A DNA stretch of 64,000 nucleotides from a bacterium CG10_46_32 (GTDB lineage: Bacteria; Patescibacteriota; Patescibacteriia; UBA2169). Made by a program: the position numbers and the translations under genes. The stretch's first letter is position 1; each line of letters starts with the position of its first letter. Below are positions 13,630 through 62,343 of this stretch, in pieces. The stretch is from positions 1,170 through 65,169 of the forward strand of contig MOEI01000012.1 of the NCBI GenBank assembly GCA_001889965.1. The letters are read 5' to 3'. The notes under the pieces are model-generated. The model was not told the origin of the DNA. It searched no databases and worked only from the letters and a program-made list of their open reading frames with translations.

Positions 13630-13905
13630 TTAAAGCTTTACATCAATCGCGCCCTCTGCGCCTTCCCCTATCTTGGCATCGCGAAACTCATAGTCTGCAT
13701 CGCGGAGCAAGGCGCGCACCGCATCACCTAGAACCGGGCCTTCTTTAGAATGGATACCGCGGCCCACGATAATGCGGACTAGGTTGTATCCCGCGTGTTC
13801 GCTCTCGCTTAAAAAAGCACGCACAGCAGCGCGCGCTTGATGTTGAGTGTGCTGATGCAGATCCAAAGTTGCCTGCGGTGTTTGGGCGTATTTGTTCATA
13901 CCCAA
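13630..13905 (-). CDS. Smr-domain protein
   Basis: TLDLHQHTQHQARAAVRAFL...RIIVGRGIHS Smr (small MutS-related) domain. Its first ~70 nt recur at 14690-14790 and 16195-16270. Confidence 0.7.
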   Translation of the reverse strand: MGMNKYAQTPQATLDLHQHTQHQARAAVRAFLSESEHAGYNLVRIIVGRGIHSKEGPVLGDAVRALLRDADYEFRDAKIGEGAEGAIDVKL

Positions 13906-14009
13906 ACTGTACGCTTCTCATTACTAAAAATCAACACAAGTCAGCCGCTATTCCAAATTAACCCATAAACTTAGAATAGTATTCCACTTTATGCAAAGTT
14001 AGGACATAA

Positions 14010-14040
14010 ATCTTGAATATAAAAACAACCGGATTAACCA
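14010..14040. terminator. Weak bidirectional hairpin terminator
   Basis: aaaaacaaccgg-atta-accagctgttttt imperfect stem with flanking A-run and T-run. Confidence 0.3.
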
Positions 14041-14082
14041 GCTGTTTTTATACTTCTTTAAAACGTACAATAAAGACGAAAT

Positions 14083-14346
14083 TTAGCACGCGGCAAAATC
14101 GTGCAAACGCCATGTGCTCCCTTTTTTCCTTGCTTCTACAACCCTGCCTCTTTGTGGATTAATATTTTCGGCAAGAGCGCGGCTTTCCTTATTGAAAGCT
14201 TCGTCGCCTTCTACGGTAATAATAACCCATCCCTTATTTGGAATTCTATTCATCAAATCAGGCTTCCTAATAATATATCTATCAAACTCATTAGACAGTT
14301 TGATATTCTTTTTTATAAATGTTTTAGACATACTGTTACGTTGCAT
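14083..14346 (-). CDS. Hypothetical protein (87 aa)
   Basis: ORF overlapping the upstream ORF by 11 nt; no recognised motif. Confidence 0.4.
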   Translation of the reverse strand: MQRNSMSKTFIKKNIKLSNEFDRYIIRKPDLMNRIPNKGWVIITVEGDEAFNKESRALAENINPQRGRVVEARKKGSTWRLHDFAAC

Positions 14347-14641
14347 ATAAATAATTTTCTTTTATTTTTTCGTAGCGCTGTGCAATATCACTCTTCATAC
14401 TGTCGAAAGCTGATTGACTATCCATATATATAGGAAATTTATATTCTTTCCCATTTTTATGATACACATGCTTATGCGGGGTTCCATACCAATTGTCTAC
14501 CCCAAGCACTGTCCTCCATCTGGATTGTATGAGGGCACGATACCGGATCGAAAATTGAACCAACTTGCCTCCCTTGGTCTCAAAGCTTATATGTAAAACA
14601 TCTATATCAGTCAAAGGATACTTATACTCTTTCTTAGGCAT
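14336..14641 (-). CDS. Hypothetical protein (101 aa)
   Basis: ORF immediately downstream of a truncated Smr N-terminal fragment; no recognised motif. Confidence 0.4.
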   Translation of the reverse strand: MPKKEYKYPLTDIDVLHISFETKGGKLVQFSIRYRALIQSRWRTVLGVDNWYGTPHKHVYHKNGKEYKFPIYMDSQSAFDSMKSDIAQRYEKIKENYLYAT

Positions 14642-14642
14642 C

Positions 14643-14762
14643 TTACTTTATTATCTATAGTATACAACAAAAATCTATATCATACAAATACGCGTTCGCT
14701 CCCACTCAAAAACGCGCGCACTGCGGCGCGCGCTTGATGTTGAGTGTGTTGGTGCAGATCCA
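14643..14762 (-). pseudogene. Truncated copy of the Smr gene 5' end (about 40 codons)
   Basis: Minus strand reads MYAQQVQTPQATLDLHQHTQHQARAAVRAFLSGSERVFV*, a near copy of the N-terminus of 13630-13905; DNA about 90% identical over 70 nt. Confidence 0.45.
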
Positions 14763-14908
14763 ATGTTGCCTGCGGTGTTTGCACTTGTTGGGCATACATT
14801 AGATGATGAGGAGAGCGGGTGAATTAAAACTTTGTGAAACCACTAAACACGGAATAACTCTCAATAAAGTACAATAAACAAATACCGGTGTTGCGTCAAC
14901 CATCTTCT

Positions 14909-15616
14909 TTATAAAAAACCGAACACTAGCATCATAATATTCAGAGCCAACAACACAAACACGATAACCCACATTGCTGCCAGAAAAAATTTATTCCAAA
15001 CCACTTTTTTTCTACGTAAAAACAAAAATATCAAATACCAAATTTCAAAAATAGATAGAGCGACAATACTGAATGCTGTTGAAAATTTTGCGATATAAAA
15101 CGAAGCGTCGTCGAACAACGCCATCATATAGCCCAGTCTTCGCGGAAACGCCAGACCGTCAAAAAGCATAATTACCGCAAATGATATAAGCAGTATCAAG
15201 GTAAGCCTCCGCCCGGAGTGACGATGTAGTTTCTGTATTCCGTTTTTAATAATTTCGCTTTTTCTTTTTTTCCTAAATTTTCTAATGACAATCGTTACAA
15301 CACAAGACAGCAGATACAAGTAGATAATCTCTATCGCCGCCATAATCCCAATCATCACACTCATCGGCCAGTCTAAATCGCCAAATACCATTTGCGGCAT
15401 GAGATAAATGAAATATGACGGAATAACTAATACCAGTCCTAGTACGCCAGCAATAAACGACGCAAAAGATACAGTGTCACAACCCAAGCTCATTATACAG
15501 CCGAACATAACCCCCATGATCAAAAAAATCGTTAGCGCGACCAAAACAACCAAAACTGCCATGACAATCAACTTCATCCGGGAAGGTTTAATAAATTTTA
15601 GTATTTTATCTTTCAT
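14909..15616 (-). CDS. Polytopic membrane protein (235 aa), last gene of the cassette array
   Basis: About 7 predicted hydrophobic helices; no recognised motif. Confidence 0.55.
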   Translation of the reverse strand: MKDKILKFIKPSRMKLIVMAVLVVLVALTIFLIMGVMFGCIMSLGCDTVSFASFIAGVLGLVLVIPSYFIYLMPQMVFGDLDWPMSVMIGIMAAIEIIYLYLLSCVVTIVIRKFRKKRKSEIIKNGIQKLHRHSGRRLTLILLISFAVIMLFDGLAFPRRLGYMMALFDDASFYIAKFSTAFSIVALSIFEIWYLIFLFLRRKKVVWNKFFLAAMWVIVFVLLALNIMMLVFGFL

Positions 15617-15672
15617 TTTGAGTTAATGGAAATTCTGCGCCGCTTTTTAAAGCATCTTTTACATGTCTTGGT

Positions 15673-15987
15673 CTACAGCCCTGTATAGTTGCTCCAAAGA
15701 GAGAAAACTAGCAATGAATATAAAGAGTAAATTACTAATCCCAATCCTACAAGTATGAATATAGTTGATAATATCCTATTATGCTTAACTTTATATCGAA
15801 AACCTTGAATACCGCCTACAAATAAATAAACTCCAACCAAAATAGACAGAACAACAATAACATTAATAACAACTCCATTATCAGATACAAAATTTCTATC
15901 CTGAAAAATAAAAACAATCAATCGCGGTACAATAACAAACAAAAACAGTACTAATAAAATAGTATTTCTTTTAAATAAATTTCTCAT
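15673..15987 (-). CDS. Small 3-TM membrane protein, cassette paralogue (ends ...SNYTGL)
   Basis: 104 aa; paralogous to 16302-16592 and 17237-17533 in size, hydropathy and C-terminal x(F/Y)TG(L/F) motif. Confidence 0.55.
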   Translation of the reverse strand: MRNLFKRNTILLVLFLFVIVPRLIVFIFQDRNFVSDNGVVINVIVVLSILVGVYLFVGGIQGFRYKVKHNRILSTIFILVGLGLVIYSLYSLLVFSLWSNYTGL

Positions 15988-16117
15988 ATGGTTCTATTTT
16001 TTAATAAACAAAACTTCTTAAAATATTCCAATCCAATGTAGAGTCGGGTAATCTGCCATAAACTTTGATAAAGCTGATTATACCCCGCTGTTCTGCGGAC
16101 ATATCTCTCACAGACGG

Positions 16118-16206
16118 CCGCAAGCCATATGCAATCATCATAACAGATTGATCGTTTTCTGCACCTGTGCTCTTTGCCTTTTGCTCGGCCTGCGCACTGC
16201 GGCGCG
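16118..16206. repeat. ~90-bp near-identical direct repeat, copy 1 (copy 2 at 16726-16810)
   Basis: Shared block gccgcaagccatatgcaatcatcataacagattgatcgttttctgcacctgtgctctttgccttttgctcggcctgcgcactgcg. Confidence 0.8.
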
Positions 16207-16270
16207 CGCTTGGTGTTGAGTGTGTTGATGCAGATCCAATGTTGCCTGCGGAGTTTGGGCGTATTTGTTG
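16195..16270 (-). repeat. Third copy of the Smr 5' gene fragment, embedded in the cassette array
   Basis: Minus strand encodes ...NKYAQTPQATLDLHQHTQHQARAAV with no start codon; DNA matches 13835-13905 and 14700-14790. Confidence 0.5.
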
Positions 16271-16301
16271 AGTATCAGGAAAGCTGGTCAAAAGATGAGG
16301 A

Positions 16302-16592
16302 TTAAAAACCCGTAAAGCCACTAAAAGCGAAGTAACCTAAAATAAAATAAATGAGAATGAGTGCAGGGGGAATGATAAATACTATTGAAACTTTTTGAGC
16401 ACTGTCTTTTAGTCGTATAGAAAATTTAACATTCATATAAACAAGATATACTGCCCCTAACAGCATAAAATAAATCAATGAATTTACATGTTTATCTGGC
16501 ATGCCTGGCTGATAAAAATTCTCATAAATAAACCAAGGTGACACAAGAAATATTATTATTAAAATAATATTTTTATAAACTAGTTTTTTCAT
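16302..16592 (-). CDS. Small 3-TM membrane protein, cassette paralogue (ends ...SGFTGF)
   Basis: 96 aa; paralogue of 15673-15987 and 17237-17533. Confidence 0.55.
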   Translation of the reverse strand: MKKLVYKNIILIIIFLVSPWFIYENFYQPGMPDKHVNSLIYFMLLGAVYLVYMNVKFSIRLKDSAQKVSIVFIIPPALILIYFILGYFAFSGFTGF

Positions 16593-16610
16593 ATTTTTTA
16601 TTATATTCTT

Positions 16611-17063
16611 TTAATAAACAAAACTTCTTAAAATATTCCAATCGAATGTAAAGCTTGGTAATCTACCATAGGTTCTAACGAAATTCACGAGTCCTTTTTG
16701 CTCCAACCCCATATCTCGCTTTAGCGGCCGCAAGCCATATGCAATCATCATAACAGATTGATCGTTTTCTGCACCTGTGCTCTTTGCCTTTTGCTCGGCC
16801 TGCGCACTGCGCTGACTTGGTAGATTGTTGGTGGAAATTTGTATCACATCACTCCAATCAACAGTGCTTGTAGGTAATCTGCCGAACGCCTCCTTAAATG
16901 AGTACAATACTCCAGCGCGCTCGCCTTGTCCTAAAGCCTGCGTACTCTTGGTGCCATAGGCAATAAACGCTATTGCTCCCCGATCAAACGAGAGCCCTTT
17001 ACCATAACGCTCTGCTACTGCTTGCTCTAAAGCGCTGTCCCTCGCTCTATCTAAATACGCCAT
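16611..17063 (-). CDS. C-terminal-module protein (units A+B, 150 aa, no signal peptide)
   Basis: Contains both repeat units found at the C-terminus of the 1237-aa protein (…IAYGTKSTQALGQGERAGVLYSFKEAFGRLPTSTVDW… and …IAYGLRPLKRDMGLEQKGLVNFVRTYGRLPSFTFDWNILRSFVY). Confidence 0.55.
   Translation of the reverse strand: MAYLDRARDSALEQAVAERYGKGLSFDRGAIAFIAYGTKSTQALGQGERAGVLYSFKEAFGRLPTSTVDWSDVIQISTNNLPSQRSAQAEQKAKSTGAENDQSVMMIAYGLRPLKRDMGLEQKGLVNFVRTYGRLPSFTFDWNILRSFVY
16726..16810. repeat. ~90-bp direct repeat, copy 2
   Basis: See 16118-16206. Confidence 0.8.
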
Positions 17064-17159
17064 GAATGTTTCGATATCTGCATTGGCAAGCGCGGATAAA
17101 ATTTCATCTTCTCTATGGATGCTTGCTGAATACGGGTTAAACGACGTAAATGGAATTAG

Positions 17160-17215
17160 AAATCAGTAAAACCACTAAAAGCGAAGTATCCTAAAATAAA
17201 ATAAATGAGAATTAA
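17160..17215 (-). pseudogene. Remnant 3' end of a small-membrane-protein gene (…LILIYFILGYFAFSGFTDF)
   Basis: DNA nearly identical to the 3' end of 16302-16592 (16310-16365) but with no upstream ORF; a recombination scar. Confidence 0.45.
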
Positions 17216-17236
17216 CACAGTAGGAATAATGTTGAA

Positions 17237-17533
17237 TTAGAGACCAGTAAAATTACTCAAAGCATAAATCATAACTAAAGCGTAAAGTGCGTACAACACC
17301 AACCCAAGACCCATAATAAAAAAAATAATTCGGCTCGTATTGCTCTCGAAATCAAAACGCTTTGCATTGATACGTACTAAATAAATTCCCGCCACCAGAA
17401 CAATAATAATCAAACCATATATAATTTTACTCCTAAGTTGAAAATCAAATATTCCAAATATGTACTTGTTAGCTAGATAAAGTACCACAACGAATAAGAC
17501 CGCGATTAAATTTTTATGTATCTTTTTTATCAT
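17237..17533 (-). CDS. Small 3-TM membrane protein, cassette paralogue (ends ...SNFTGL), cognate to the large protein
   Basis: 98 aa; starts 13 nt after the stop of the 1237-aa gene. Confidence 0.6.
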   Translation of the reverse strand: MIKKIHKNLIAVLFVVVLYLANKYIFGIFDFQLRSKIIYGLIIIVLVAGIYLVRINAKRFDFESNTSRIIFFIMGLGLVLYALYALVMIYALSNFTGL

Positions 17534-17545
17534 AATCCAACTTAC

Positions 17546-20500
17546 TTAATAAACAAAACTTCTTAAAATATTCCAATCCAACGTAGAACATGGGAGCTTG
17601 CCGTAGATCTCAATAAATCGCTCTATCCCTTGTCGCTCGGCATCTAGATCCCGCTTATCCGGCCGCAGACCGTAGGCAACCGTTATAATAGATTTCTCAT
17701 CATTCATACCCACATCTTTTGCTTTTCGCTCGGCGGCACCGCTTCGCTGAATTGGCGCTTGGTTGGTTGCAATTCGAATCACGTCATTCCAGTCTTCGCT
17801 TGTTGTGGGGAGGATGCCAAATGCCGCTTTATAGGAATACAGTACTCCGGCGCGCTCTCCGGTTCCAAGTTTTTGCGTGCTCTTGGTGCCATATGTGATA
17901 AAGTTGATGCCTGCCTGGTTCAAGCGAAGTGATCGGCCGTATTTTTGAGCTGTTTCCTGCTCCGAAAAAAAATTCCGTTCCAAACTAAGATAATCCAATA
18001 ACGTTTCAATATCACCATCGTGGAGAGCAGCCAGAATATCATCTTGCGTATACTGCTCGCTCTGTGCACGCTCTATTTTTACGCCAAGCACTTCCGGAGT
18101 TGAGGCAGATCCTGAATCAAGTCCAGGATGACGATTTGGCTCTTGAGTATTCTCATCTTGCGATTTGCCGGCAGGCGCGGCAGGTGTCGGCACAATAATG
18201 ACAGCCGGAGAATAAACATTGATCGTTTGAGTGTGGTAATCTTCCAGATTCCCTACTCTGTCCTTTGACCGGTACAGTACTGTATTATCGCCTATAGTGG
18301 TAAGTATAACCTGATTTTCGTAAGCGTGCCACGTGCTCCCGTTATCAAGACTATATTCTGTTTTTAAAACTCCAGAATTATCATCACTTGCCAAAAGCTC
18401 AAACGCGGCGGAAGACGCTCCACCAGAAACACTGATAGTAGTGGTTGGTTTTGTTATGTCCCCAGCCTGTGTACTGTTGAGGACCGCTGCCGCAGTAACC
18501 GGCGCAAAACTTCCCGTACCATTCGTATCCACCTGTAACGTGGTTCCACTAACGTCCGATGACAACGCTACCTGTGCACTGGTTGATTGATTCACTGGAA
18601 CATCAGTGTAATACGCAGTTTCGATGACCTGGTTGTTCACAACCTTGGAAACATACAGGCTGAATGTACCACTTCCGGTGCCGTCATGTTGAATATTGTA
18701 AGATGTAGAATCCGTGTTCGGTATAAAGATAAATTTATTATCTCCAATCTGCTCATAGGTTGCGCCTGGGATATTCAATTCAATATCTCCATTTTCGTCT
18801 GGACCGACATGGTTGCCGTTTGCATCATACACGTTTAAATTGACCGGACTGTGCACAGATACGACCTGACCGTTGAATACACACTGGCTGATGTCTTGAG
18901 AAATATCCGGCAATGACGAAGTGTCTAGCGTGCCGGTGATGATCTCTGTAATTAACTGCTTAATACTTGACTGGCTCGGCATGGTTGCGTGTTCAACGCC
19001 AATTGCATAAAATGTTTTGTTTGCCTGTATATCAATAGCAGTCGCGCTATCCAACGGAACTGTTCCGTCGCCTGCTACAAACTCAACACCATATTCTACT
19101 TTAACAAGTTCCTGGTTCCGGATGATAATTTTGCCGAGAGTTGCAGTGTCGCACCCCACAATATTATAGGCATCCATTCCAGTAGTATTAAAATCGTCCA
19201 AAGCATTGCTATGAAGATCATCTGCGCTCTGAACAAGAGAAAAGTTTAAGCCCTGGTTGACCAGATAATTATTTACCTCGTCATAAGTGTGGCTTTTTGG
19301 AATAGCTAGATTATAAAAGTATTTTCCGATTTCAGATATATATAGACTACTAGGCAACAACTGGTAAACTGACGCCATATTCTTTGTGATGCTTTTTATT
19401 TCAAGTTGGTTCATTATTAGACCCATACCCAAATTATCACCATACAGTAATACCTTTGCTGATTTAGGTGACCCTAAATGTGGCGTACCGACAAAGATCA
19501 TTTTATTAACTCTCGACGAAGAATTATCAAGAATATATTGTTTCAAAACTAGACCACCCATACTATGGGCGACAATATCGACTTTCTGACTACCCGTCTG
19601 TTGTATAACACTATCAATCTTATCGACTAAAAATTGACTTATTGATTGAATATTCAAACGCCAATCATAAGGGAATAAAAATAAATCAGTATTCTCCTGA
19701 TACCCAGCAGACTCAAAATCATTAATCAAACCATCCAAGTAATCAAAAATAGTACCACCAAAAATTGATGCTTTCCTAAAAATATCATCAACATAAACAG
19801 AATTATCGCTTGGAGACCCATCTTCATTCATAGACAAAGGATCCATATAGGATTCGGCGACCGAAATTGCCGTCCAAAGAAAATTTGGCCATAAAGTAAT
19901 ATCTCCTAAACCACCAAAAACTTCCTGCTTCAAAATCGTCCCGGCTATCCCCGGCACCAGAATAACAGGTACATTACGCACCTCAAACATTAACTCCCCA
20001 GACGATGGCAAGCGGACAGCAGACAACCCATCCGAAGTCTCAAAGTGGTAGGAATAGGAACCCTTAGGGAACACGCCGGCATTTGGAGTAAACTCAAACA
20101 GGCCATTGGACGACGTTGCCATAGGATACGCGCTATTGCCAACCACCAAGCGAACATACTGCGCAGAATCGCCATCAGAATCAGTAAATAAAATGCGGAA
20201 CACCGGAACATCCTGCCCTACAAAACTAATATCAGGCGATGCGCCATCAGCAGTATACCCATCCAAATCTTGGTACGATAAAACCGGCGCTTGGTTGGCG
20301 GGATCTTGGTTTGTCCAGGGGCTATAGGTTACATTCCCCACAATCACATCCCCGGTTCCAGAAGGATTGGACGCAATGGTCGGGCCGGAAGAACTGCCCC
20401 ACCAATTGTTCGTCATATCCAACGGGTCGTCGCCGGAGTAGAAAACCGCACTTTCTGAATTATCGTAAAAACTGGAACCTACAATAGACACGTGCGCTGG

Positions 20501-27241: not shown

Positions 27242-29218
27242 CTAGCGAACAATAGAATCAACTAATATAGTAAACAGGAGTCTAGGCTCGCCGCGGCTTT
27301 CTTTGAGGCTGCGGTCCAAGCGAGCAAGCGCATGGTACGTGGCCACAAGGCGCGCGATAGTAAACCGTGTTGCTTGCTTCCGAGTTTTTTGAACCACAAA
27401 CGGATTCAGCTTAAGCTGCGAGGCAAGGGATGCATCAGACCCTTCGGCCCCGTGCAATGCAAGCAGTAATCGGGTCTGCCTAATAATCATTCCCAAAAAC
27501 TGCTGAGGCGCTTCACTTGCTTCAAGTTGTGCATCCACCAAACTAAGCGCGGTTTTTTTGTCGCCACTCGAAAGCGCGTCCACAAACTTCCAAATATTCT
27601 CTTGGCTTCCTGCGTGCACCATAGTGCGCACCATTTGTTCGGTAATGGGATTCTTTCCTGCGGCCGCGAGCTTGGCAACCTCGTTGCGCGCCCGCCACAC
27701 GTCCGCGCCAATCATGCTACCAAGCAGCGCGCTAGCGCGAGGCTCAATTGTAGCATGCAGCTCTTGTGCATACTTCTGGATTCTATCGGGCATTTCAGAT
27801 TCAGAAGGCTGGGCAAACTCTTTGGAGTATTGCTCCTTTGCAAGCCGAGACACAAGCTTTAAACGCTTGTCGCACGCGCCGGCGTGGAACACAATGAGCG
27901 TGGTGTCTACTGAAAGCTCATGAGTATCCAAAAAATCCGTAAGTCCGTCGCGGATGTCCTTGTCTTCTAAAACCCCTTTTGCAACAACTAATTTTTTGGA
28001 GCTAAACAATCCTCCACCTGTCAAAAACGCAGCAAGCTGTTCCCAGCTTCCCTCAGATGCTTCAAACAACTCAACCATGCCGCCTGATTGCGCATGCTTT
28101 TTGTTGAACTGGTCGGTTAATTTTTCCAGGTATTGACGCGACGAGTACGTGTCTTCCCCGTGAATCAAAATAAGCATGCGCCTTCCAATTTGTTTTTGAA
28201 TGGTTAAACTTCTGCAATGCACCAAAACCCCCAAATACGATTGCAAAGATTGATTAAATGATTCTGTCCCAATAAAACCATGCCGCAACTGCTCCTTTTT
28301 GACGCGCATCTTCTTGATAATCCTGTGCTTCGTTTTGGTGCGGATAACGCGATAGTGCGGAAGCGCGACATATCCCAAAAAATCAATCCCCTGATTAATT
28401 TTACGCACGAAAACAGTATCGTCATGAATCTCCAGTTTTAAGTTTTGATCCAAGAATAGCCTAGCACGCGCCGCGCTATCTTTCAAATAATCAGGGTCTC
28501 GGTGCAACATCACAAAATCATCACAATACCTGACATAATACTTTTGGCATAACGAATGCTTGACGTATTGGTCTAATTCATTTAAATAAACGTTTGCAAA
28601 CAACTGACTTGTTACATTGCCCAAGGGAATCCCTTTTCCGTGCACTATTGAAAAACTGCCTATGATATCCCCAATAAGACGCAATGCGGCATCATCCTGA
28701 ATAGTTTTTTGCATAATCCCGCGCAACACGCCGTGGTCAACCGTATCAAAAAACTTTTTAATATCACAAGTAAGCGCGTACGCGGTTTTGGTAAAATTAT
28801 CAGTTGCCTTGCGCGCGAACCGCTCAAGGCGGCTTACTCCCTTGTGCGTCCCCTTGCCAATCCTGCACGAATACGAATCAAAAATAAAATGCGGATCAAA
28901 CTCATGGTATAGTACCCTAAACACTGCCTGGTGCATAAGCCTGTCCCGCACATCGGCTTTATGTATGTGCCTTAATTTCGGATCGCGTACATAAAATGAA
29001 CTATACGGCCCATGCGCATAGCGCCCCGTCCGAAGGTCGTCACGCAAGCCAAATAGAGCATCCTCAAGCGCAAACTCAAATTCCCGCACATCTTGCTTTT
29101 TCCGCTTGCCTCGCCTAAACTCATACCATGCGGAGAAAAGATTCTCCAGGCTTATAATCCTCTCAAACAAGCTATTAACACCAGTATGCCCGCCCCCCCC
29201 CCAACGGAGTGGTTCCAA
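27242..29218 (-). CDS. DGR-type reverse transcriptase (28178-29218) fused in frame to a full-length DNA polymerase III delta subunit HolA homologue (27242-28177)
   Basis: RT part: NLFSAWYEFRRGKR...KADVRDRLMHQA...SYSCRIGKGTH...IPLGNVTSQL...YVRYCDDFVM (DGR Brt-like motifs including LGNxTSQ and YxDD). From MLILIHGEDTY onward it is HolA-like (…FVDALSSGDKKTALSLVDAQL…). There is no stop codon between the two parts. The paralogous RT at 58243-59268 ends at the equivalent position. Confidence 0.75.
   Translation of the reverse strand: MEPLRWGGGGHTGVNSLFERIISLENLFSAWYEFRRGKRKKQDVREFEFALEDALFGLRDDLRTGRYAHGPYSSFYVRDPKLRHIHKADVRDRLMHQAVFRVLYHEFDPHFIFDSYSCRIGKGTHKGVSRLERFARKATDNFTKTAYALTCDIKKFFDTVDHGVLRGIMQKTIQDDAALRLIGDIIGSFSIVHGKGIPLGNVTSQLFANVYLNELDQYVKHSLCQKYYVRYCDDFVMLHRDPDYLKDSAARARLFLDQNLKLEIHDDTVFVRKINQGIDFLGYVALPHYRVIRTKTKHRIIKKMRVKKEQLRHGFIGTESFNQSLQSYLGVLVHCRSLTIQKQIGRRMLILIHGEDTYSSRQYLEKLTDQFNKKHAQSGGMVELFEASEGSWEQLAAFLTGGGLFSSKKLVVAKGVLEDKDIRDGLTDFLDTHELSVDTTLIVFHAGACDKRLKLVSRLAKEQYSKEFAQPSESEMPDRIQKYAQELHATIEPRASALLGSMIGADVWRARNEVAKLAAAGKNPITEQMVRTMVHAGSQENIWKFVDALSSGDKKTALSLVDAQLEASEAPQQFLGMIIRQTRLLLALHGAEGSDASLASQLKLNPFVVQKTRKQATRFTIARLVATYHALARLDRSLKESRGEPRLLFTILVDSIVR
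29193..29202. repeat. Poly(C)10 homopolymeric tract at the divergent avd/RT junction of DGR-1
   Basis: cgcccccccccc; sits in the RT 5' codons (WGGGG) and just upstream of the avd start. Confidence 0.9.
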
Positions 29219-29562
29219 TTGTCCATGCCATTACTCATGTGTACAAGGAATTGTACCAGCTTGGGAAAAAACTTCCAAAACAAGACCGATACGGCATGCA
29301 CCGGTGCATTACCGAAGTATGCCTCAAAAGCCTCAAGCTTGCGATAGAGGCGGCTTTGTCCGTGAAACAGGAAAAAGCGCCTATCCTAAAAAAACTGCGG
29401 GTGGAAATTGGCGTGCTTAAGCAATTGGTGCGCCTGCTCTATGAATTAAATCGTATCCCACAAAAGGCCTATTTCGGACTTGAACAACAACTCTGTGAAA
29501 TATCCAAAATGGCCGGTGGATGGAGCAAGTATGCTGATATGCACAAAACAAAAGGAGCATAA
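29208..29562 (+). CDS. avd: Avd-like accessory variability determinant of DGR-1, encoded on the strand opposite RT/TR/VR
   Basis: 117 aa, GTG start; LPKQDRYGMHRCITEVCLKSL ... CEISKMAGGWSKYADMHK parallels Bordetella bAvd (IPRKHGVAREMFLKCLL ... AEVGRILGSWIARVNRK). Confidence 0.65.
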
Positions 29563-29576: not shown

Positions 29577-29694
29577 GAAACTATCGCACGAGCACGCAGG
29601 TTCGCGTTGGCATTCTGCGGGTGGTTCCAGTTCAGGTTCAGCGCGCCGCCGTTCCAGTTCACGTTCGGCACATGGCCATCCGAATTGCGGGAAC
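29577..29694 (-). repeat. DGR-1 template repeat (TR)
   Basis: 118-bp copy of VR-1. On the minus strand the variable positions are A, and the translation is Asn-rich (NVNWNGGALNLNWNHPQNANAN). Confidence 0.85.
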
Positions 29695-29956: not shown

Positions 29957-30688
29957 TTAGGAAACTACCGCACGAGCACGCAGGCGCGCGCCGGCACCCT
30001 GCGGGTAGTGCCAGTGCAGGCTCAGCGCGCCGCCGAACCAGTCCACGCTCGGCACATGGCCATCCGAAACGCGGGAACCACTACAGAGTGTGATACTCTT
30101 TACATCCAGATGGCCCCCTTTCTCATCGTTGTACTTCAGCTCGTGGATGACGCGCTCCAGCGCGGTTTCGGTCGCGATCTCGCGCTCTGCTATGTCCTCG
30201 GCAGACAGGTTCTTGAGTTCCTCGTCTGCCTCCACCCGGTCGCGCACGCGGATTGCGTACGAGCCAGTCGCGGAGTCGCGTTCATTCCGGCTGATGGCGC
30301 TGTCCGTGTTATCCCAGTAGCACCTAACCGGAAAACGCTCCTCACACGCATGGAGGAGCCGAGAGAGCTGCAATCCGTGGGCGATTATGAGCACCTTGTT
30401 AAAACCGGGCTTTGGTGCCGGCAAGGCAAGGTGCGAGAAACCAACCCCCATGCCGAGTACGCGCCCGTAGAAGTCCTCCCACTCCGTCCGGACATCGCTC
30501 TGCAGAATCGCCTGCATGCGGTTTTTGTCTATGCGGCCGTTCTGGACCTGGGCCCAGAACTCTTTCATCTGTCCTGGCGTCGGCGGCCCCGATGAGCCTC
30601 CCTCTTGCTGAACACGCACATCTGCGCAGTCAGTAGCATGCAATGCGGTCATCGCACACCTCCTATGGAAATAGGTTAAAAAGTGCAT
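29957..30688 (-). CDS. DGR-1 target protein with C-terminal variable region (CLec/FGE-like ...VDWFGGALSLHWHYPQGAGARLRARAVVS)
   Basis: GC-rich ORF whose last ~39 codons are VR-1, ending at the stop codon; N-terminal start uncertain. Confidence 0.7.
   Translation of the reverse strand: MHFLTYFHRRCAMTALHATDCADVRVQQEGGSSGPPTPGQMKEFWAQVQNGRIDKNRMQAILQSDVRTEWEDFYGRVLGMGVGFSHLALPAPKPGFNKVLIIAHGLQLSRLLHACEERFPVRCYWDNTDSAISRNERDSATGSYAIRVRDRVEADEELKNLSAEDIAEREIATETALERVIHELKYNDEKGGHLDVKSITLCSGSRVSDGHVPSVDWFGGALSLHWHYPQGAGARLRARAVVS
29961..30078 (-). repeat. DGR-1 variable repeat (VR)
   Basis: Matches TR-1 with about 18 mismatches, all but one at TR adenines (TR A -> VR C/G/T). Confidence 0.85.
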
Positions 30689-45489: not shown

Positions 45490-45549
45490 AATCGGAAAAA
45501 ATACGAGAGTATGGTATAATGCACGCTAATGATATATGCTAAAGTTCAC

Positions 45550-50160: not shown

Positions 50161-50300
50161 TGAAGATTTTCTCTTGGGCCGACACGTCGTACTCGGCGCG
50201 GAGGTTAAGAGAAAATCTTAAGAGGAGTAGGCGGATGGAGGGCGAAGCGGATTCCGTGTACTCACGGGATACGCACAGCCCGCAATGCCGACTACGACGC
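50161..50300 (+). repeat. tRNA-abutting structured element, copy A (between tRNA-Arg and tRNA-Lys)
   Basis: gaagattttctctt-[gccga...tcggc hairpin]-aagagaaaatctt, AAGAGGAGTAGGCGGATGGAGGGCGAAGCGG, ccgtg-tact-cacgg hairpin, GATACG, CCGACTACGACG; ends 0-3 nt before the tRNA-Lys 5' end. Confidence 0.5.
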
Positions 50301-50376
50301 GCGCCGTTAGCTCAGCTGGTAGAGCAGCTCCCTCTTAAGGAGACGGTCGGGGGTTCGATCCCCTCACGGCGCACCA
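50301..50376 (+). tRNA. tRNA-Lys (anticodon CUU), CCA encoded
   Basis: Acceptor gcgccgt/acggcgc, anticodon loop ctcttaa, T-arm ggggg-ttcgatc-ccctc. Confidence 0.8.
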
Positions 50377-50378
50377 TT

Positions 50379-50411
50379 AAAAACATCCATCAGTTATTGA
50401 TGGATGTTTTT
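50379..50411. terminator. Bidirectional intrinsic terminator
   Basis: aaaaacatccatca-gttat-tgatggatgttttt. Confidence 0.7.
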
Positions 50412-50423
50412 AATGTTAAACTA

Positions 50424-53404: not shown

Positions 53405-53549
53405 ACAGATTTTCTCTTCGCAACTCACTACTTGGGCCGAGGTACTCCGAGGTTAAGGAGTGAGTTGAAGAGGAGTAGGCGAGCGAAAGGCGAAGCGGCC
53501 TCCGAGTAATCTCGGATGACGCGTAGCCTGAAGCACGACTACGACGAGT
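53405..53549 (+). repeat. tRNA-abutting structured element, copy B (upstream of tRNA-Gly)
   Basis: acagattttctctt, GAAGAGGAGTAGGCGAGCGAAAGGCGAAGCGG, ccgag-taat-ctcgg hairpin (compensatory to copy A ccgtg/cacgg), GATGACG, CACGACTACGACG; ends 1 nt before the tRNA-Gly 5' end. Confidence 0.5.
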
Positions 53550-53624
53550 GCGGGTATCGTATAATGGTTATTATGTCAGGTTTCCAACCTGAAAATGGGG
53601 GTTCGATTCCCCCTACCCGCTCCA
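53550..53624 (+). tRNA. tRNA-Gly (anticodon UCC), CCA encoded
   Basis: Acceptor gcgggta/tacccgc, anticodon stem tcagg/cctga with loop tttccaa, T-arm ggggg-ttcgatt-ccccc. Confidence 0.8.
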
Positions 53625-53657
53625 AAAACACCCCGCCGATTCGGCGGGGTGTTTTTA
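53625..53657. terminator. Bidirectional intrinsic terminator
   Basis: aaaaacaccccgccg-attc-ggcggggtgttttt. Confidence 0.7.
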
Positions 53658-53680
53658 ATGTAAAAAAATACAATAAACAA

Positions 53681-57576: not shown

Positions 57577-58008
57577 TTAAAAATATTTCTTCAAAAAATC
57601 CGATGGCTCCATAATCTCAATGGGTAGCTGCAGTTTGAGCAATGCCTCATTCCTTGAAAAGTGCCGCCGATCCAGTGTGAGCAGGACATCCGCGCGCGCG
57701 AGCACGGCTCCGACAAGAATCGGCACGTCTTTACCCGGCACATAGCGGGCCGCAATACTCGCCTCCGACGACACAAACTCAAAAGGATGTTGGATGATGT
57801 AATTACCTTGCAGGATGTTTTGATAGTGCGCAAAAAGTTCCCGCTCTCTAAACGATTGCCTGATGTTTCGCTCCGCTTCCCGGAGCACGTGTTCGGTTGT
57901 GATAACAGTTATCGAACCGGCTCTCGCCATGCGCAACACAAAACCAGATCCCCCGTGCGGGGACCTGGCTGCTGCAAAAAATACGTTTGCGTCCACAAAC
58001 ACGTTCAT
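57577..58008 (-). CDS. vapC: PIN-domain toxin (VapC-like)
   Basis: N-terminal MNVFVDANV...; conserved acidic residues of the PIN fold; 143 aa. Confidence 0.75.
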   Translation of the reverse strand: MNVFVDANVFFAAARSPHGGSGFVLRMARAGSITVITTEHVLREAERNIRQSFRERELFAHYQNILQGNYIIQHPFEFVSSEASIAARYVPGKDVPILVGAVLARADVLLTLDRRHFSRNEALLKLQLPIEIMEPSDFLKKYF

Positions 58009-58220
58009 GGCGCAGCTTCTAGAGTACGCAAAAGATTCTCTATTCGTTCTCTGGTCTCCAAATCAAGCTCATCCGCCTGCTCAAATTCCCGAATCCGTTC
58101 AGGTGTATATATCTCAATGCCTGCATCCGTCGCTTCTGAACGCTTAAAAATCTTCTCGTAGAGCGTTGCCTGTTGTTTTAATATTTCGTACTGATTTTTG
58201 GGGATGGTAACAGTATCCAT
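58005..58220 (-). CDS. Putative antitoxin (VapB-like) upstream of the PIN toxin
   Basis: About 70-aa ORF (start taken at the internal MDTVTIPKNQYE) overlapping the PIN gene start by 4 nt. Confidence 0.5.
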   Translation of the reverse strand: MDTVTIPKNQYEILKQQATLYEKIFKRSEATDAGIEIYTPERIREFEQADELDLETRERIENLLRTLEAAP

Positions 58221-58242
58221 AATACCACCAGTATAGCAAAAA

Positions 58243-59268
58243 TTAAACCGCAAGGCAACCAAATGTATTCGTGCGGCGGCTCATAGTATTCACTGCCTGT
58301 GTTAATCCGAATGCATTCCCGTGTTGCAATAAACCAACATACGATTGGACTGATGCGTCCCGCGCCTCTTGAGAACCAAGCCTCATAAGCATTCTGCGTT
58401 TTGATGCGGTCCGTAACACGCAATGATCCGGAAAATGCACCCAGCCCAAAAAATCCACTCCGGAAGAAAGGGTTTTGATAAAAACTTTGTCCGGATGCAG
58501 CGCAAGGTTGAGTTCATGCTCTAAAAATTCCGATATTCTTAGAAGCTGATTACGAAGCCGTTCTTTGTCATGAGATAACATCACAAAATCATCAGCATAA
58601 CGAATGTAGTATTTGGCCTTGAGCTTGTGCTTCACAAATCGGTCAAACTTGTTCATATACACATTAACCAATAGCTGCGAGGTGAGATTGCCAAGAGGCA
58701 GTCCCGCGCCTTTTTTGGTTGAGTGGAAACTGGAGACAATTTGTGAAATGAGCCACCTAATATCGCGGTCCGGCAGGTAACCTTTAATAATCTCGATGAG
58801 AATGTTTTGGTCAATTGAAGCAAAAAACTTTCTAATGTCGCACTTAAGTACCCACACTGTCCGGGTATGATTGCGAGACGCCTTGCGGGCAAACGCCCGA
58901 AACCGGTTCATGGCTCTGTGCGTTCCTTTGCCTAACCGGCACGAGTACGAGTCCGCAATAAATGTCTTGTCAAAAAACGGATATAATACCCGGTATAACG
59001 CATGGTGCAGCAGCCGATCCCGCACGCTGGCTTTGTGAATGTTTCTCGGTTTTGGGTCTGAGATGTTAAAAGCGTAATAAGGCGCGTGCTGATAGGTTTT
59101 GTTTGCCAAATCACGGTGGAGCGCAAAGACATTGGTCATTAAATCGCGTTCAAATTCCTGCACATCCCGGCGGTTGCGCTTGCCGCGGATAAACTCCTGC
59201 CACGCGAGAAGCAGATTATCTACAGAGATGATATACTGGTAACTGCCATTAAAAATAACCTTGCCCAT
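58243..59268 (-). CDS. DGR-type reverse transcriptase (stand-alone, 341 aa)
   Basis: NLLLAWQEFIRGKR...KASVRDRLLHHALYRVL...SYSCRLGKGTH...LPLGNLTSQL...YIRYADDFVM; paralogue of the RT part of 27242-29218. Confidence 0.85.
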   Translation of the reverse strand: MGKVIFNGSYQYIISVDNLLLAWQEFIRGKRNRRDVQEFERDLMTNVFALHRDLANKTYQHAPYYAFNISDPKPRNIHKASVRDRLLHHALYRVLYPFFDKTFIADSYSCRLGKGTHRAMNRFRAFARKASRNHTRTVWVLKCDIRKFFASIDQNILIEIIKGYLPDRDIRWLISQIVSSFHSTKKGAGLPLGNLTSQLLVNVYMNKFDRFVKHKLKAKYYIRYADDFVMLSHDKERLRNQLLRISEFLEHELNLALHPDKVFIKTLSSGVDFLGWVHFPDHCVLRTASKRRMLMRLGSQEARDASVQSYVGLLQHGNAFGLTQAVNTMSRRTNTFGCLAV

Positions 59269-59665
59269 ACTATGCCGTATTCTACCCCCCCCCCCGACAA
59301 TTTTGCCAGTATTGCAAAAGGTGAAAAGCGCGTATCTCTTGTGGTACGGCTTTTACCAAACGATTCCAAAGAATCACAGGCACTCGCTCGGCAAAAAAAT
59401 TGACACCTTGTTTGTGGAGATCGTTGAGGCGATCGCGACTGCTTGTTTTTTGGTGCGCGCCGAAAAAATCCCGTACGTCCGCAGGGCAATCCAAAAACTG
59501 GATACGCTAAAAATATTTTTAATGATCCTCTGGGAAACAAAATCTTTGGACAACAAAAAGTATGCCGCGCTTTCCGAGCCGCTGGATGAAATAGGCCGCA
59601 TGCTCGGCGGCTGGAACGGCCAGCTTGTAAAACAAAACTCCCCCGCAAAAGCGGGGGAGAAATGA
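59261..59665 (+). CDS. avd: Avd-like accessory variability determinant of DGR-2, on the strand opposite RT/TR/VR (true start probably TTG/GTG near 59308-59329)
   Basis: …KSAYLLWYGFYQTIPKNHRHSLGKKIDTLFVEIVEAIATA…LDEIGRMLGGWNGQLVKQN matches the bAvd/23S-IVS four-helix-bundle pattern. The ORF as drawn reads through the poly(C) tract (PPPP). Confidence 0.6.
   Translation: MPILCRILPPPPTILPVLQKVKSAYLLWYGFYQTIPKNHRHSLGKKIDTLFVEIVEAIATACFLVRAEKIPYVRRAIQKLDTLKIFLMILWETKSLDNKKYAALSEPLDEIGRMLGGWNGQLVKQNSPAKAGEK
59285..59295. repeat. Poly(C)11 homopolymeric tract at the divergent avd/RT junction of DGR-2
   Basis: ccccccccccc lying 17 nt upstream of the RT ATG (minus strand) and upstream of the likely avd start. 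Confidence 0.9.
59638..59659. promoter_or_regulatory. Hairpin immediately 3' (TR-RNA sense) of TR-2
   Basis: ctccccc-gcaaaa-gcgggggag, 12 nt from the TR-2 boundary; inside the avd 3' end. Confidence 0.35.
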
Positions 59666-59671
59666 AGAGAG

Positions 59672-59793
59672 TTGCGAGGACGAGAGCGGGGTTGCTGGCA
59701 TTCCAGCCGTTGTCGAGCCAGTTGTAGTTCCAGTTCCACCTGTTGCCGTTCCAGTTGAGGTAACGGACATAGAGGTTGTCGTCCGGGTCGCGA
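59672..59793 (-). repeat. DGR-2 template repeat (TR)
   Basis: 122-bp copy of VR-2; the minus strand has A at every variable position; Asn-rich translation (YLNWNGNRWNWNYNWLDNGWNASNPALVLAT). Confidence 0.85.
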
Positions 59794-60038
59794 TTTGCAT
59801 AACGCGCCTCCTGTGCCACTGCCCCGCGAATACTCTTGGGGCTGTATCGTATTTGGCATCGCAATGCCCTAGCGCGCCATGCCAAGTATCTTCATTTTTT
59901 GAAGTTTCTGCATGCGCCGCGCTATTCCAAACTCTTGATCGGGAATACTCCGGACGCATGGATACTGGATTCGGCAGCGGCCAGCCGTAGCCAACCACAT
60001 ATTCGCCTAATACCGTTTCTATTGTAACAAAAATAAGA

Positions 60039-60075
60039 GGCCCGCACCATTCGCTATGAACGAATGATGCGGGCC
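60039..60075 (-). terminator. Hairpin/terminator about 70 nt downstream of VR-2
   Basis: ggcccgcaccattcg-ctatgaa-cgaatgatgcgggcc (14-bp stem, 1 mismatch) followed in minus sense by a T-rich run. Confidence 0.45.
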
Positions 60076-60142
60076 TTGTCGCGCGAGTTCTAAGGGCTAA
60101 GGCCAAAGATCCAAAAGATCTAAGAACCTAAGCTCGAAGTAC

Positions 60143-60700
60143 TCAACTTGCGAGGACGAGAGCGGGGTTGCTGGCACGCCAGCCGTCGTCGAGCCAGTAG
60201 CAGCCCCAGCGCCACCCGTCGCCGCCCCAGTCGAGGCAACGGACATAGAGGTCGCCGCCCGGGCCGCGATAGATAGTGCCCCAGAAGAACACATACTTGC
60301 CCTTCCACGCCTCGGGAATGAGGTGCGGATTGGCGAGCAGGTAGTCCAGCACGTTCGCGTTGAGTACGTGCCGGGACTTGAGCTCCTCGCGGAGTTTGTC
60401 GCCCTTGATGGAGCCGCAATTTTGCTCCTCTGTGAGGTAAAGCGCGACCTTGGCGGGGTCCCACTCCAACTGGCCGCCCTTGACGTGCTGTTCCACGCTC
60501 CAGCTCTCGGACAGGAACGGATCGGCGTCGCAGTCAATGACGTGCCTCTTGGGTACGATTTCGGCGCGGCCGTGAATCAGGTCCAGAATCCCGGGCCAGT
60601 TATTGAACTGGCCGAGAAGCGTCACGTCGTGAGGCGTGAGGAGCTCGGACTCCAACCTCTCCATCAACTGGTGGGTCTGACCTTCTGAATAAGAAGACAT
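60143..60700 (-). CDS. DGR-2 target protein with C-terminal variable region (...YVRCLDWGGDGWRWGCYWLDDGWRASNPALVLAS)
   Basis: 185-aa GC-rich ORF; its last ~40 codons are VR-2, ending at the stop codon. Confidence 0.7.
   Translation of the reverse strand: MSSYSEGQTHQLMERLESELLTPHDVTLLGQFNNWPGILDLIHGRAEIVPKRHVIDCDADPFLSESWSVEQHVKGGQLEWDPAKVALYLTEEQNCGSIKGDKLREELKSRHVLNANVLDYLLANPHLIPEAWKGKYVFFWGTIYRGPGGDLYVRCLDWGGDGWRWGCYWLDDGWRASNPALVLAS
60148..60270 (-). repeat. DGR-2 variable repeat (VR)
   Basis: About 19 mismatches to TR-2, all at TR adenines. Confidence 0.85.
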
Positions 60701-60918
60701 GTCTTCTCTCCGTTGTTTGGCACATGTGCCAGTTTGGACGCTAGCGGACTGCCTTATGCAGCCATAGCCAGAAACTACCCAAATTTGAGTTGTTTTTGGC
60801 TATGGCAACACGTTTTTGCGAGTAAAATAGGGGTAAAAAGAGCTAATACTATATTATATCATAACTACGTAATTTGTCAATAGTGCTACAAAAACAACAA
60901 ACAGCTACACTGTAACAT

Positions 60919-62343
60919 ATGTCAACCGCACATCGCATCGCCAAAAACACGCTTTACCTGGCTCTCGGCAAAATACTTTCAACAGGAATCGGGGTATTAA
61001 CGGTCGCTCTTCTGCTCCGATACCTCTCGGTTGAGGATTACGGAAGATATACCACAGTTCTGGCATTTATCCTGCTCTACGGAACTATTGTTGATTTTGG
61101 ACTGAATTTGACGACAACGCAGGACATCTCTTTGCCCGCCACTGATGTTCCTCGCACACTCTCCACAGTATTCACACTACGTCTTTTGGTAAACATAGTG
61201 CTTATACTTCTATTGCCGGTGATTCTACTTGCGTTCCCGTACGAACCAGCTGTTAAAAATGCGATACTTATCACATCAGTCTTGTTTTTTACATCATCTT
61301 TGTTTCAGGTACTGGCAAGCTACTTCCAAATGGCGCTTGAAGCCGGCAAAGTAGCTGCCGCAGAACTTGCAGGACGAGCCATACTGCTCGCAACAACCGG
61401 CATAGCCATTTTCTATGGATTCACATTCACGCAAATTATGCTCACGATTGTAGCAAGTTCATTAGTGCAGTTTTGGGTGCTGTTACGGTTTACTTCGGCC
61501 GCAATCCATCTGCGGCTGATAATTGATTACACAATAGGGAAACGGATCGCACGCAAAACATGGCCCATTGCCTTGTCGGTAATTTTTACGACCATCTATT
61601 TTAAGGGTGATGCGGTAATTCTCTCGTTGACGCGGCCCTACCAGGATGTAGGCATCTATGGAGCCGCATACAAAATTCTTGAGGTACTCATTACTCTGCC
61701 GATTCTGTTTATGGGATTAGTATTGCCTCATCTTTCACGGGCGCATAGCAAGGGCGATACTAAGCAGTTTAATGATATTATGCAAAAAACATGGGACGCG
61801 CTTGCTGTTGTAACTATGCCGTTGGTGGTTGGAACCCTTGTTCTTGCGCGGCCCATTATGGTGCTTATTGCAGGCAACGGCTACGAACCTGCGGAAAACG
61901 TACTTCGCATATTAATTATTGCGACGGGAATTATTTTTCTAGGAAGCTTGTTTAGCCATGCGGTGGTCGCCATTGGAAAACAGAAAAGCATGATACAATA
62001 CTATGCCGCAACCGCAATGCTTGCGGTGGTGCTCTATGTCGCATACATCCCAACCTACACCTACTACGCAGCCGCAGGTGTTACCGTGCTTTCAGAATTT
62101 TTAATCGCCATTGCAGCCGGGATTGTCGTATGGCGCGCTTCATCACTTACGCTTTCTACAAAAGGGTTCTGGGCCGCGCTTATAGCAAGCGCACTCATGG
62201 GTTTTGTATTGTATATTCTGCTTAGTCTAAATGTATTAGTTCTCGTACTCATTGGCGGATCACTCTACACACTCTTAATATATATGATGCGATCACAATT
62301 TTCATTTTTTTTACATGAAACTCCACTCAATCGGAACCACTAA
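60919..62343 (+). CDS. Polysaccharide/oligosaccharide flippase (Wzx/MOP superfamily)
   Basis: About 12-14 TM segments with Wzx-like N-terminal signature (LALGKILSTGIGVLTVALLLRYL…YGRY). Confidence 0.75.
   Translation: MSTAHRIAKNTLYLALGKILSTGIGVLTVALLLRYLSVEDYGRYTTVLAFILLYGTIVDFGLNLTTTQDISLPATDVPRTLSTVFTLRLLVNIVLILLLPVILLAFPYEPAVKNAILITSVLFFTSSLFQVLASYFQMALEAGKVAAAELAGRAILLATTGIAIFYGFTFTQIMLTIVASSLVQFWVLLRFTSAAIHLRLIIDYTIGKRIARKTWPIALSVIFTTIYFKGDAVILSLTRPYQDVGIYGAAYKILEVLITLPILFMGLVLPHLSRAHSKGDTKQFNDIMQKTWDALAVVTMPLVVGTLVLARPIMVLIAGNGYEPAENVLRILIIATGIIFLGSLFSHAVVAIGKQKSMIQYYAATAMLAVVLYVAYIPTYTYYAAAGVTVLSEFLIAIAAGIVVWRASSLTLSTKGFWAALIASALMGFVLYILLSLNVLVLVLIGGSLYTLLIYMMRSQFSFFLHETPLNRNH

Follow-up and report, generated by a model that had tools for sequence, protein, structure and literature searches.

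A second, probably complete diversity-generating retroelement in bacterium CG10_46_32, its structured template RNA and a simple repeat between its avd and reverse transcriptase genes

The DNA analysed here (the window) is a stretch of 64,000 nucleotides from contig MOEI01000012.1 of bacterium CG10_46_32, a member of the Patescibacteriota within the candidate phyla radiation (CPR). Between positions 58,243 and 60,700, an earlier reading made from the sequence alone had placed a second, independent diversity-generating retroelement (DGR), in addition to one located some 30 kb away (DGR-1). This second element, DGR-2, does possess its own reverse transcriptase (RT-2), its own pair of template repeat (TR-2) and variable repeat (VR-2), and its own target gene, and it further contains a gene for the accessory protein Avd. 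The coordinates of these features are collected in Table 1. We put the probability at roughly 90% that DGR-2 is a complete, chromosomal DGR of the CPR type, with the architecture known as B3, target(VR)-TR-(avd)-RT.

The reverse transcriptase has the length of 341 residues and the LGNLTSQ motif that the sequence-only reading had reported, and it also carries the YADD motif. Its closest solved structure is that of bRT from the Bordetella phage (8ub7_A, E 9e-45), whereas the structures of group II intron and retron-type reverse transcriptases match at only ~1e-18; by sequence, RT-2 is thus a reverse transcriptase of the DGR type. The gene that completes the cassette, the accessory variability determinant avd-2, had gone unmentioned in the earlier reading, and its product matches the Pfam family bAvd at 9e-13 (49.1 bits, with a cut-off of 40). 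Because avd-2 lies on the plus strand between RT-2 and TR-2, the order along the minus strand is target(VR), TR, antisense avd, RT. The reading frames of RT, Avd and the target protein are all intact.

The same layout recurs among the relatives of RT-2. One genome per species was scanned, which yielded 553 relatives, and the best 80 of these (59-71% identity) were studied; all 80 come from metagenome-assembled genomes of the Patescibacteria type, a few of which are mislabelled. Both avd and RT are held by 76 of the loci, and in all 76 the avd gene is antisense and directly upstream of RT. Approximately 51 loci include enough upstream DNA for TR and VR to be located, and in these TR abuts the 3' end of avd, and ~270-420 nt upstream of TR there is a VR that differs from it specifically at adenines.

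TR-2 and VR-2 align without a gap over 123 nt, at an offset of 476, with 19 mismatches. Every one of the 19 falls on a T of TR-2 on the plus strand, and hence on an adenine of the minus-strand template. The sequence-only reading had counted about 19 differences, all at template adenines, and the exact alignment upholds this with 19 of 19 and zero non-adenine mismatches, while setting the end of TR-2 at 59794. From TR-2 to VR-2 on the minus strand, the changes comprise 16 A>G, 2 A>C and 1 A>T, such that 19 of the 32 TR adenines are altered, and all are located at codon position 1 or 2 of the 185-residue frame 60143-60700(-), with none at position 3. Were the two repeats simply an ordinary duplication, with differences that arose by chance or through a general A-to-G bias and with an RT that is unrelated to them, the predominance of A>G, a deamination-type transition, in 16 of the 19 changes would be readily understood. 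Yet the probability that 19 of 19 mismatches should fall by chance on the adenines of one strand is ~8e-12, and the changes include A>C and A>T as well. The avoidance of codon position 3, the recurrence of the pattern beside the same RT, Avd and RNA in ~51 independent loci, and the location of TR-2 inside a non-coding RNA likewise speak against an ordinary duplication, which we consider effectively refuted.

VR-2 lies at the extreme C-terminus of a small, GC-rich open reading frame (ORF), as had been noted earlier: its homology with TR-2 stops at 60148, one codon before the target stop codon at 60145-60143. Read in the target frame, TR-2 translates to RDPDDNLYVRYLNWNGNRWNWNYNWLDNGWNASNPALVLA, and its described richness in asparagine is reflected in nine AAC codons among the 20 that contain adenine. 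None of these 20 codons can be mutated to a stop, and the protein diversity accessible from TR-2 is ~1e17. The last 28 nt of TR-2 and VR-2 are GC-rich and identical, with five adenines left unchanged. When adenine substitutions are pooled over the ~51 related loci and both DGRs of the window, they amount to 555 A>G, 225 A>T and 149 A>C, an A>G-biased spectrum that may contribute to the GC-richness of variable repeats. The earlier reading had also proposed a search for further VR-like copies of either template repeat; run on the window by low-stringency BLAST, it returned only the known pairs and a weak similarity between TR-1 and TR-2 (68% over 50 nt). A 116-nt repeat at 45541/46854 was considered as a third DGR and rejected, as its differences are not adenine-specific.

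The target protein is identical to BK004_02160 of 'bacterium CG10_46_32', and belongs to a family with more than 1000 homologues of ~185-195 residues, of which all named ones are from Patescibacteria and all are without a Pfam domain. Alignment of 65 members shows good conservation of the first 140 residues, and the last 40 consist of an invariant W/L/V/R scaffold broken by highly variable columns. Column entropy is 2.57 bits where the TR codon has an adenine at position 1 or 2, compared with 0.82 bits elsewhere in the VR (p 2e-6), and the family is therefore hypervariable at the TR-adenine codons. Target 2 itself has no Pfam or NCBIfam match, and a Foldseek comparison of its AlphaFold2 model (pLDDT 94.7) with the PDB gave nothing significant. 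The protein probably binds a ligand.

The composition of the target genes is unusual. Outside the VR, target gene 2 has a GC content of 0.59 and a GC content at third codon positions (GC3) of 0.82; the corresponding GC3 of target gene 1 is 0.71, and the neighbouring genes range from 0.43 to 0.60. Likewise, the target exceeds its own RT gene in GC content in 49 of 51 loci, by a mean of 0.13, and the excess is present outside the VR also. Depletion of adenine was considered as the cause of these GC-rich targets and rejected, because A and T are equally reduced on the coding strand.

Upstream of target gene 2, ~150 nt before the ATG at 60700, there is a promoter-like site with a full consensus match. 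Downstream, a hairpin at 60076-60038(-) forms 18 pairs including G-U, 10 of which are G-C, and is followed by CTTATTTTTG; a similar hairpin with a T-run is found ~50-100 nt past the VR in most related loci. The sequence-only reading had described a hairpin with a 14-bp stem about 70 nt downstream of VR-2. The hairpin is real and begins 71 nt past VR-2, but the stem was given as too short. Its most plausible role is that of an intrinsic terminator for the target gene. Its identification with the GC-rich cruciform that adjoins the initiation of mutagenic homing (IMH) sequence in the Bordetella phage was rejected, given the distance of 71 nt, the T-run and the terminator-like form.

Nucleotide conservation extends over the ~235 nt between this terminator and TR-2, even among relatives with an RT identity of only 60-70%. 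RNAalifold, applied to 52 loci, predicts six helices here with 44 pairs, 39 of which show compensatory double changes. In total, 95.1% of the alignment cells form standard pairs; shuffled columns give 72.5%, and shifting the partners by 1-3 columns lowers the figure to 39-49%. Double changes are carried by 568 cells, compared with 152 in shuffles. In several loci, extra hairpins of variable length are inserted at the helix tips. The last helix, 59882-59871/59808-59797, has 12 bp and ends 3 nt before TR-2. A covariance model built on the 3' half of this domain (R1) matches 71 loci exactly once each, on the RT strand and upstream of TR in every case, and it matches the window at 59791-59891. Upstream of the conserved start of the RNA, 30 of 35 loci have a TAnnnT hexamer at an unvarying distance, TG-extended in 21, and this constant placement suggests that the TR RNA may have a dedicated promoter, represented in DGR-2 by the extended -10 element TGTTACAAT.

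Past TR-2, a conserved linker of 12 nt, CTCTCTTCATTT, leads to a stem-loop of 9 bp with a UUUU tetraloop (CTCCCCCGC-TTTT-GCGGGGGAG), which is followed by TTTTGTTTT. The stem-loop is found ~12 nt past TR in nearly all relatives, and it shows 54 double-change cells where shuffles give 11.6, even though the final codons of avd overlap it on the opposite strand. The linker itself appears to pair back to AAAUGAAGA in the 5' domain: compensatory changes in the duplex 59897-59889/59668-59660 occur in seven loci (L004, L019, L029, L041, L068, L070 and L075), and in 31 divergent loci the native partners pair better than permuted ones, with 0 of 5000 permutations as good, although shared ancestry inflates this test and the support for the duplex is accordingly rated as moderate. 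A local hairpin within the 5' domain, CUUCA/UGAAG, is disfavoured, as it fits the variants less well than the linker pairing does.

As judged from these sequence comparisons, TR-2 sits in a conserved non-coding RNA of ~385 nt, 60014-59629(-). It could be argued instead that the interval between VR and TR encodes a protein, and that the hairpin after TR serves termination alone and takes no part in retrohoming. Public gene calls in the ENA do place a 161-residue ORF across TR and the RNA domain (L081:2410-2895, equivalent to window ~59374-59859, minus strand), with avd left uncalled, and the hairpin with its T-run does fit the consensus for intrinsic terminators. However, the 161-residue ORF has no Pfam match on record, and the high fraction of paired cells, the excess of double changes and the hairpin insertions of variable length are properties of an RNA. 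The stem-loop moreover covaries even where it overlaps avd codons, its position and form agree with a previously predicted Avd-binding element (discussed below), and roles in termination and in protein binding are not mutually exclusive. A protein-coding interval is therefore very improbable, and the automatic annotation, in calling the 161-residue ORF and leaving avd uncalled, hides both the accessory gene and the non-coding RNA.

Such an arrangement has partial precedents. In 207 of 278 Avd-containing DGRs, CPR members included, Handa et al. (2024) predicted an Avd-binding stem-loop just past TR, commonly a tetraloop on a 9-bp stem, and also a duplex between the upstream and downstream flanks, with only 40 nt of upstream sequence examined. 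By sequence, both the DGR-2 stem-loop (9 bp, UUUU, 12 nt past TR) and its duplex fit these elements, and the stem-loop at 59659-59638 is, by this analogy, the putative Avd-binding element and 3' end of the TR RNA. Structured RNAs beside RT genes, thought to serve DGRs or retrons, were also described by Weinberg et al. (2017; PMC5737381) as motifs RT-1 to RT-19, of which RT-10 is the spacer of Bordetella phage BPP-1. The present RNA resembles these motifs in kind, but a search of Rfam 15 over 58000-61000, with E up to 1, matched no family, apart from one chance-level small RNA match over the stem-loop. In the literature searched, no description was found of the large 5' domain, the dedicated promoter and the short 3' end of the TR RNA.

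Table 1. Positions in the window of the features of DGR-2 and DGR-1.
Feature	Position	Strand	Remarks
Promoter-like site of target gene 2 (TTGACA, 16 nt, TG-extended TATAAT)	60853-60880	-	12/12 consensus match
Target gene 2, 185 aa, hypothetical protein	60143-60700	-	ATG at 60700; identical to NCBI BK004_02160
VR-2, variable repeat	60148-60270	-	target residues 145-184
Intrinsic-terminator-like hairpin and T-run after target gene 2	60028-60076	-	hairpin 60076-60038
Extended -10 element TGTTACAAT, candidate for TR RNA	60021-60029	-	conserved placement
Predicted structured 5' domain of TR RNA	59797-60014	-	RNAalifold, covariation, covariance model
Predicted 5'-domain helix	59998-59990/59985-59977	-	
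Predicted 5'-domain helix	59960-59954/59917-59911	-	encloses 59947-59938/59932-59923
Predicted 5'-domain helix	59882-59871/59808-59797	-	encloses 59867-59864/59859-59856 and 59842-59838/59825-59821
AAAUGAAGA, candidate upstream strand of long-range duplex with the post-TR linker	59889-59897	-	compensatory changes
TR-2, template repeat	59672-59794	-	123 nt, 32 adenines
Conserved 12-nt linker CTCTCTTCATTT	59660-59671	-	candidate downstream duplex strand; avd stop codon on other strand
9-bp stem with UUUU tetraloop (CTCCCCCGC-TTTT-GCGGGGGAG), then TTTTGTTTT	59629-59659	-	stem-loop 59659-59638
avd-2, accessory variability determinant	59303-59665	+	antisense to RT, TR and VR; mechanical ORF starts at 59261
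C11 homopolymer (G11 on RT strand)	59285-59295	.	between avd-2 and RT-2 start codons
RT-2, DGR-type reverse transcriptase, 341 aa	58243-59268	-	RVT_1 2e-22
DGR-1 RT	27242-29218	-	
DGR-1 avd	29209-29562		
DGR-1 TR	29577-29694		
DGR-1 VR	29961-30078		
DGR-1 target gene	29957-30688		

The junction between the divergent avd and RT genes is marked by a simple repeat. Exactly two G/C homopolymers of 8 nt or more are present in the window, C11 at 59285-59295 in DGR-2 and C10 at 29193-29202 in DGR-1, and each falls between the avd and RT start codons of its DGR. Where both genes are present (76 related loci), a junction G-run of 8-14 occurs in 61 and G7 in four more, while seven of the remaining 11 carry another simple repeat, namely (CTGG)10, (TGATTGC)11, (GT)10, (TGGCGGC)6, (GT)8, (GT)16 or (ATTG)7. 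The unit lengths of the junction repeats are all non-multiples of 3, those of the substitutes being 2, 4 or 7. In 626 kb of related loci there are 69 such G/C runs in total, 61 of which are at the avd-RT junction. Two assemblies of the same organism, compared over 7 kb, differ only by three changes confined to 15 nt at the run, G11 versus G10 and two substitutions, a difference that resembles a contingency locus, although an assembly error at the homopolymer is also possible. The junction repeat suggests slipped-strand, phase-variable control of the expression of RT, Avd or both; a literature search found no link between DGRs and homopolymeric tracts or phase variation.

A related strain found in a metagenome scan beside the homopolymer (L084) also has G11. 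On the reverse strand of this locus (L084:5748-7507), Avd is 96% identical to that of DGR-2 and the N-terminal 152 residues of RT are 97% identical, after which the RT match skips residues 153-219 and resumes at 59% identity. Its TR/VR pair is different (129 nt, with 12 of 13 mismatches at adenines), as is its target. The locus points to module shuffling or to a damaged RT.

Comparison with known DGRs places DGR-2 among those of the CPR. The B3 architecture, TR-(avd)-RT, was reported for 90% of a CPR set (Wu et al. 2018; PMC5758913), and CPR genomes were found to be enriched in DGRs that form their own clade and whose targets lack recognisable domains (Roux et al. 2021; PMC8144416). With this group (DGR clade 2 of Roux et al.), DGR-2 shares its gene order, the antisense avd, the host lineage and the chromosomal location, and also a small target that has the VR at its extreme C-terminus and lacks a signal peptide, a transmembrane segment and any recognisable domain. 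No feature distinguishing DGR-2 from the group was found. The connection to a DGR-enriched CPR lineage that the sequence-only reading had drawn is borne out by the source organism.

The likeness to Bordetella phage BPP-1 (mtd-avd-TR-brt) extends to the adenine-specific transfer from TR to VR, the AAC codons, the homologous RT and Avd, and, at the level of the RNA, to a stem-loop just 3' of TR and a duplex that joins both TR flanks. The two systems differ in their layout, however. In BPP-1, avd is upstream of TR and on the same strand, and the functional flanks of the RNA are the 3' end of avd and a 140-nt spacer (Sp) downstream of TR. In DGR-2, avd is antisense and downstream, the structured part of ~220 nt precedes TR, and only ~45 nt, made up of linker, stem-loop and U-tract, come after it. 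Furthermore, DGR-2 has no cruciform adjacent to the IMH, its nearest hairpin being the terminator 71 nt away, and its target is not a phage tail fibre.

Several points weigh against the assignment of DGR-2 as a complete DGR of this type. When compared with the NCBIfam family DivGenRetAVD, avd-2 scores 69.4 bits (2.7e-19), which is under the curated cut-off of 80. The IMH sequence of VR-2 and its counterpart IMH* of TR-2 are indistinguishable inside the common 28-nt 3' end, and since the two repeats diverge completely right after ...CGCAA, any distinction between them must lie downstream. RNAalifold shows no conserved structure downstream of the stem-loop, antisense to avd, that would correspond to an Sp-like RNA; the priming site may therefore differ from that of the Bordetella phage, and with no more than ~45 nt after TR, the 5' domain may contain the primer, unlike in the Bordetella phage system. 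Finally, an exact 32-mer of the target gene gave 0 matches in the metagenome contigs of the Joint Genome Institute (JGI), and two ENA assemblies, derived from different samples, have the same VR-2 as the window, although a consensus hides minority variants.

This identity of VR-2 in all assemblies recovered raises the question as to whether DGR-2 might be intact but currently silent, for example switched off at the avd-RT repeat or only rarely active, with VR-2 effectively fixed. The two 7-kb assemblies do differ only in or beside the homopolymer, as an on/off switch would. Conversely, TR-2 and VR-2 show no non-adenine mismatch, neither RT, Avd, the RNA helices nor the target has decayed, and consensus assemblies could not reveal minority variants in any case. 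We consider a silent cassette unlikely, and it would in any event concern the state of DGR-2 rather than its identity.

The features of a complete CPR-type DGR can be combined into a scheme of how DGR-2 would operate, in which RNA-protein binding, priming, the cDNA stop and homing are modelled by analogy on the Bordetella phage DGR. The target gene would be transcribed from its own strong promoter as far as the intrinsic terminator, and the extended -10 promoter right after this terminator would drive a separate non-coding TR RNA of ~385 nt. This RNA would contain, in order, the multi-helix 5' domain, the 123-nt template, the 12-nt linker, and the 9-bp tetraloop stem-loop with its U-tract, and the pairing of the linker back to the 5' domain would clamp both ends of TR. 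From a junction of ~35 nt, mostly G/C homopolymer, avd and RT would be expressed divergently. The RT-Avd complex may then bind the stem-loop and flanking RNA, copy TR from its 3' end and misincorporate opposite adenines, with cDNA synthesis stopping where the 12-bp helix begins, 3 nt upstream of TR. The cDNA would replace VR-2, guided by the invariant, GC-rich 28-nt 3' end, and such a replacement would recode up to 20 codons in the C-terminal 40 residues, giving ~1e17 protein variants.

DGR-1 has the same layout as DGR-2: its avd is antisense, its target gene ends in a terminator, its TR is followed by a stem-loop and T-run, and the junction carries the C10 run. Its RT and Avd, however, are only 45% and 25% identical to those of DGR-2, the R1 covariance model finds no match there, and the two targets are without sequence similarity, in keeping with the earlier description of them as unrelated. 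The low identities imply that DGR-1 and DGR-2 diverged long ago as paralogues, and did not arise by recent duplication and retargeting to different proteins, an origin that the sequence-only reading had raised for comparison. That reading had also regarded two DGRs within 30 kb as a high density. Yet ~10% of the complete genomes that bear DGRs have several (Wu et al. 2018; PMC5758913), and given this proportion, the B3 layout and the CPR clade, the pair is unremarkable for the lineage. The RT-1 frame (27242-29218, minus strand) lacks a stop codon of its own and runs into a holA domain, which creates a single ORF of 658 residues with RVT_1 at residues 81-283 and DNA_pol3_delta (DNA polymerase III delta subunit) at 351-653; this could be a true fusion or two overlapping genes in the same frame.

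Three other observations from the window may be recorded. Directly downstream of RT-2, and overlapping its 3' end, 57577-58262(-) encodes a PIN-domain protein of 143 residues (weak Pfam PIN_3) and, upstream of it, an ORF of 85 residues, which are probably a toxin-antitoxin pair. Families of direct repeats of 51-102 nt, with 68-94% identity, are located at 13794-17605. An element of ~200 nt is repeated beside tRNA-like sequences, at 50201-50420 and 53449-53665.

DGR-2 is nothing new in kind, as DGRs with this layout and with small, domainless targets are already known to abound in CPR genomes. Together with its 70-80 relatives, however, the locus provides a complete model of the CPR-type transcription unit, composed of a target mRNA, a structured TR RNA, and divergent avd and RT genes, and it exposes three conserved features: a strongly covarying 5' RNA domain that lies outside Rfam, a probably hypermutable repeat between avd and RT, and a strong GC3 excess of the target genes. 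It is further conceivable that in CPR B3 DGRs generally, TR resides in a free-standing RNA of ~385 nt with a promoter and terminator of its own, whose large protein-binding or priming domain is on the 5' and not the 3' side of TR, in effect a permuted DGR RNA, and that RT, Avd or both are subject to slipped-strand control via the junction repeat. Taken jointly, these two proposals are tentative, and we hold the combination to be possible rather than probable. Hypermutability of the junction repeat could be the means by which cells keep down the cost of a mutator, and if such contingency control does operate, the targeted hypermutation would alternate at random between on and off.

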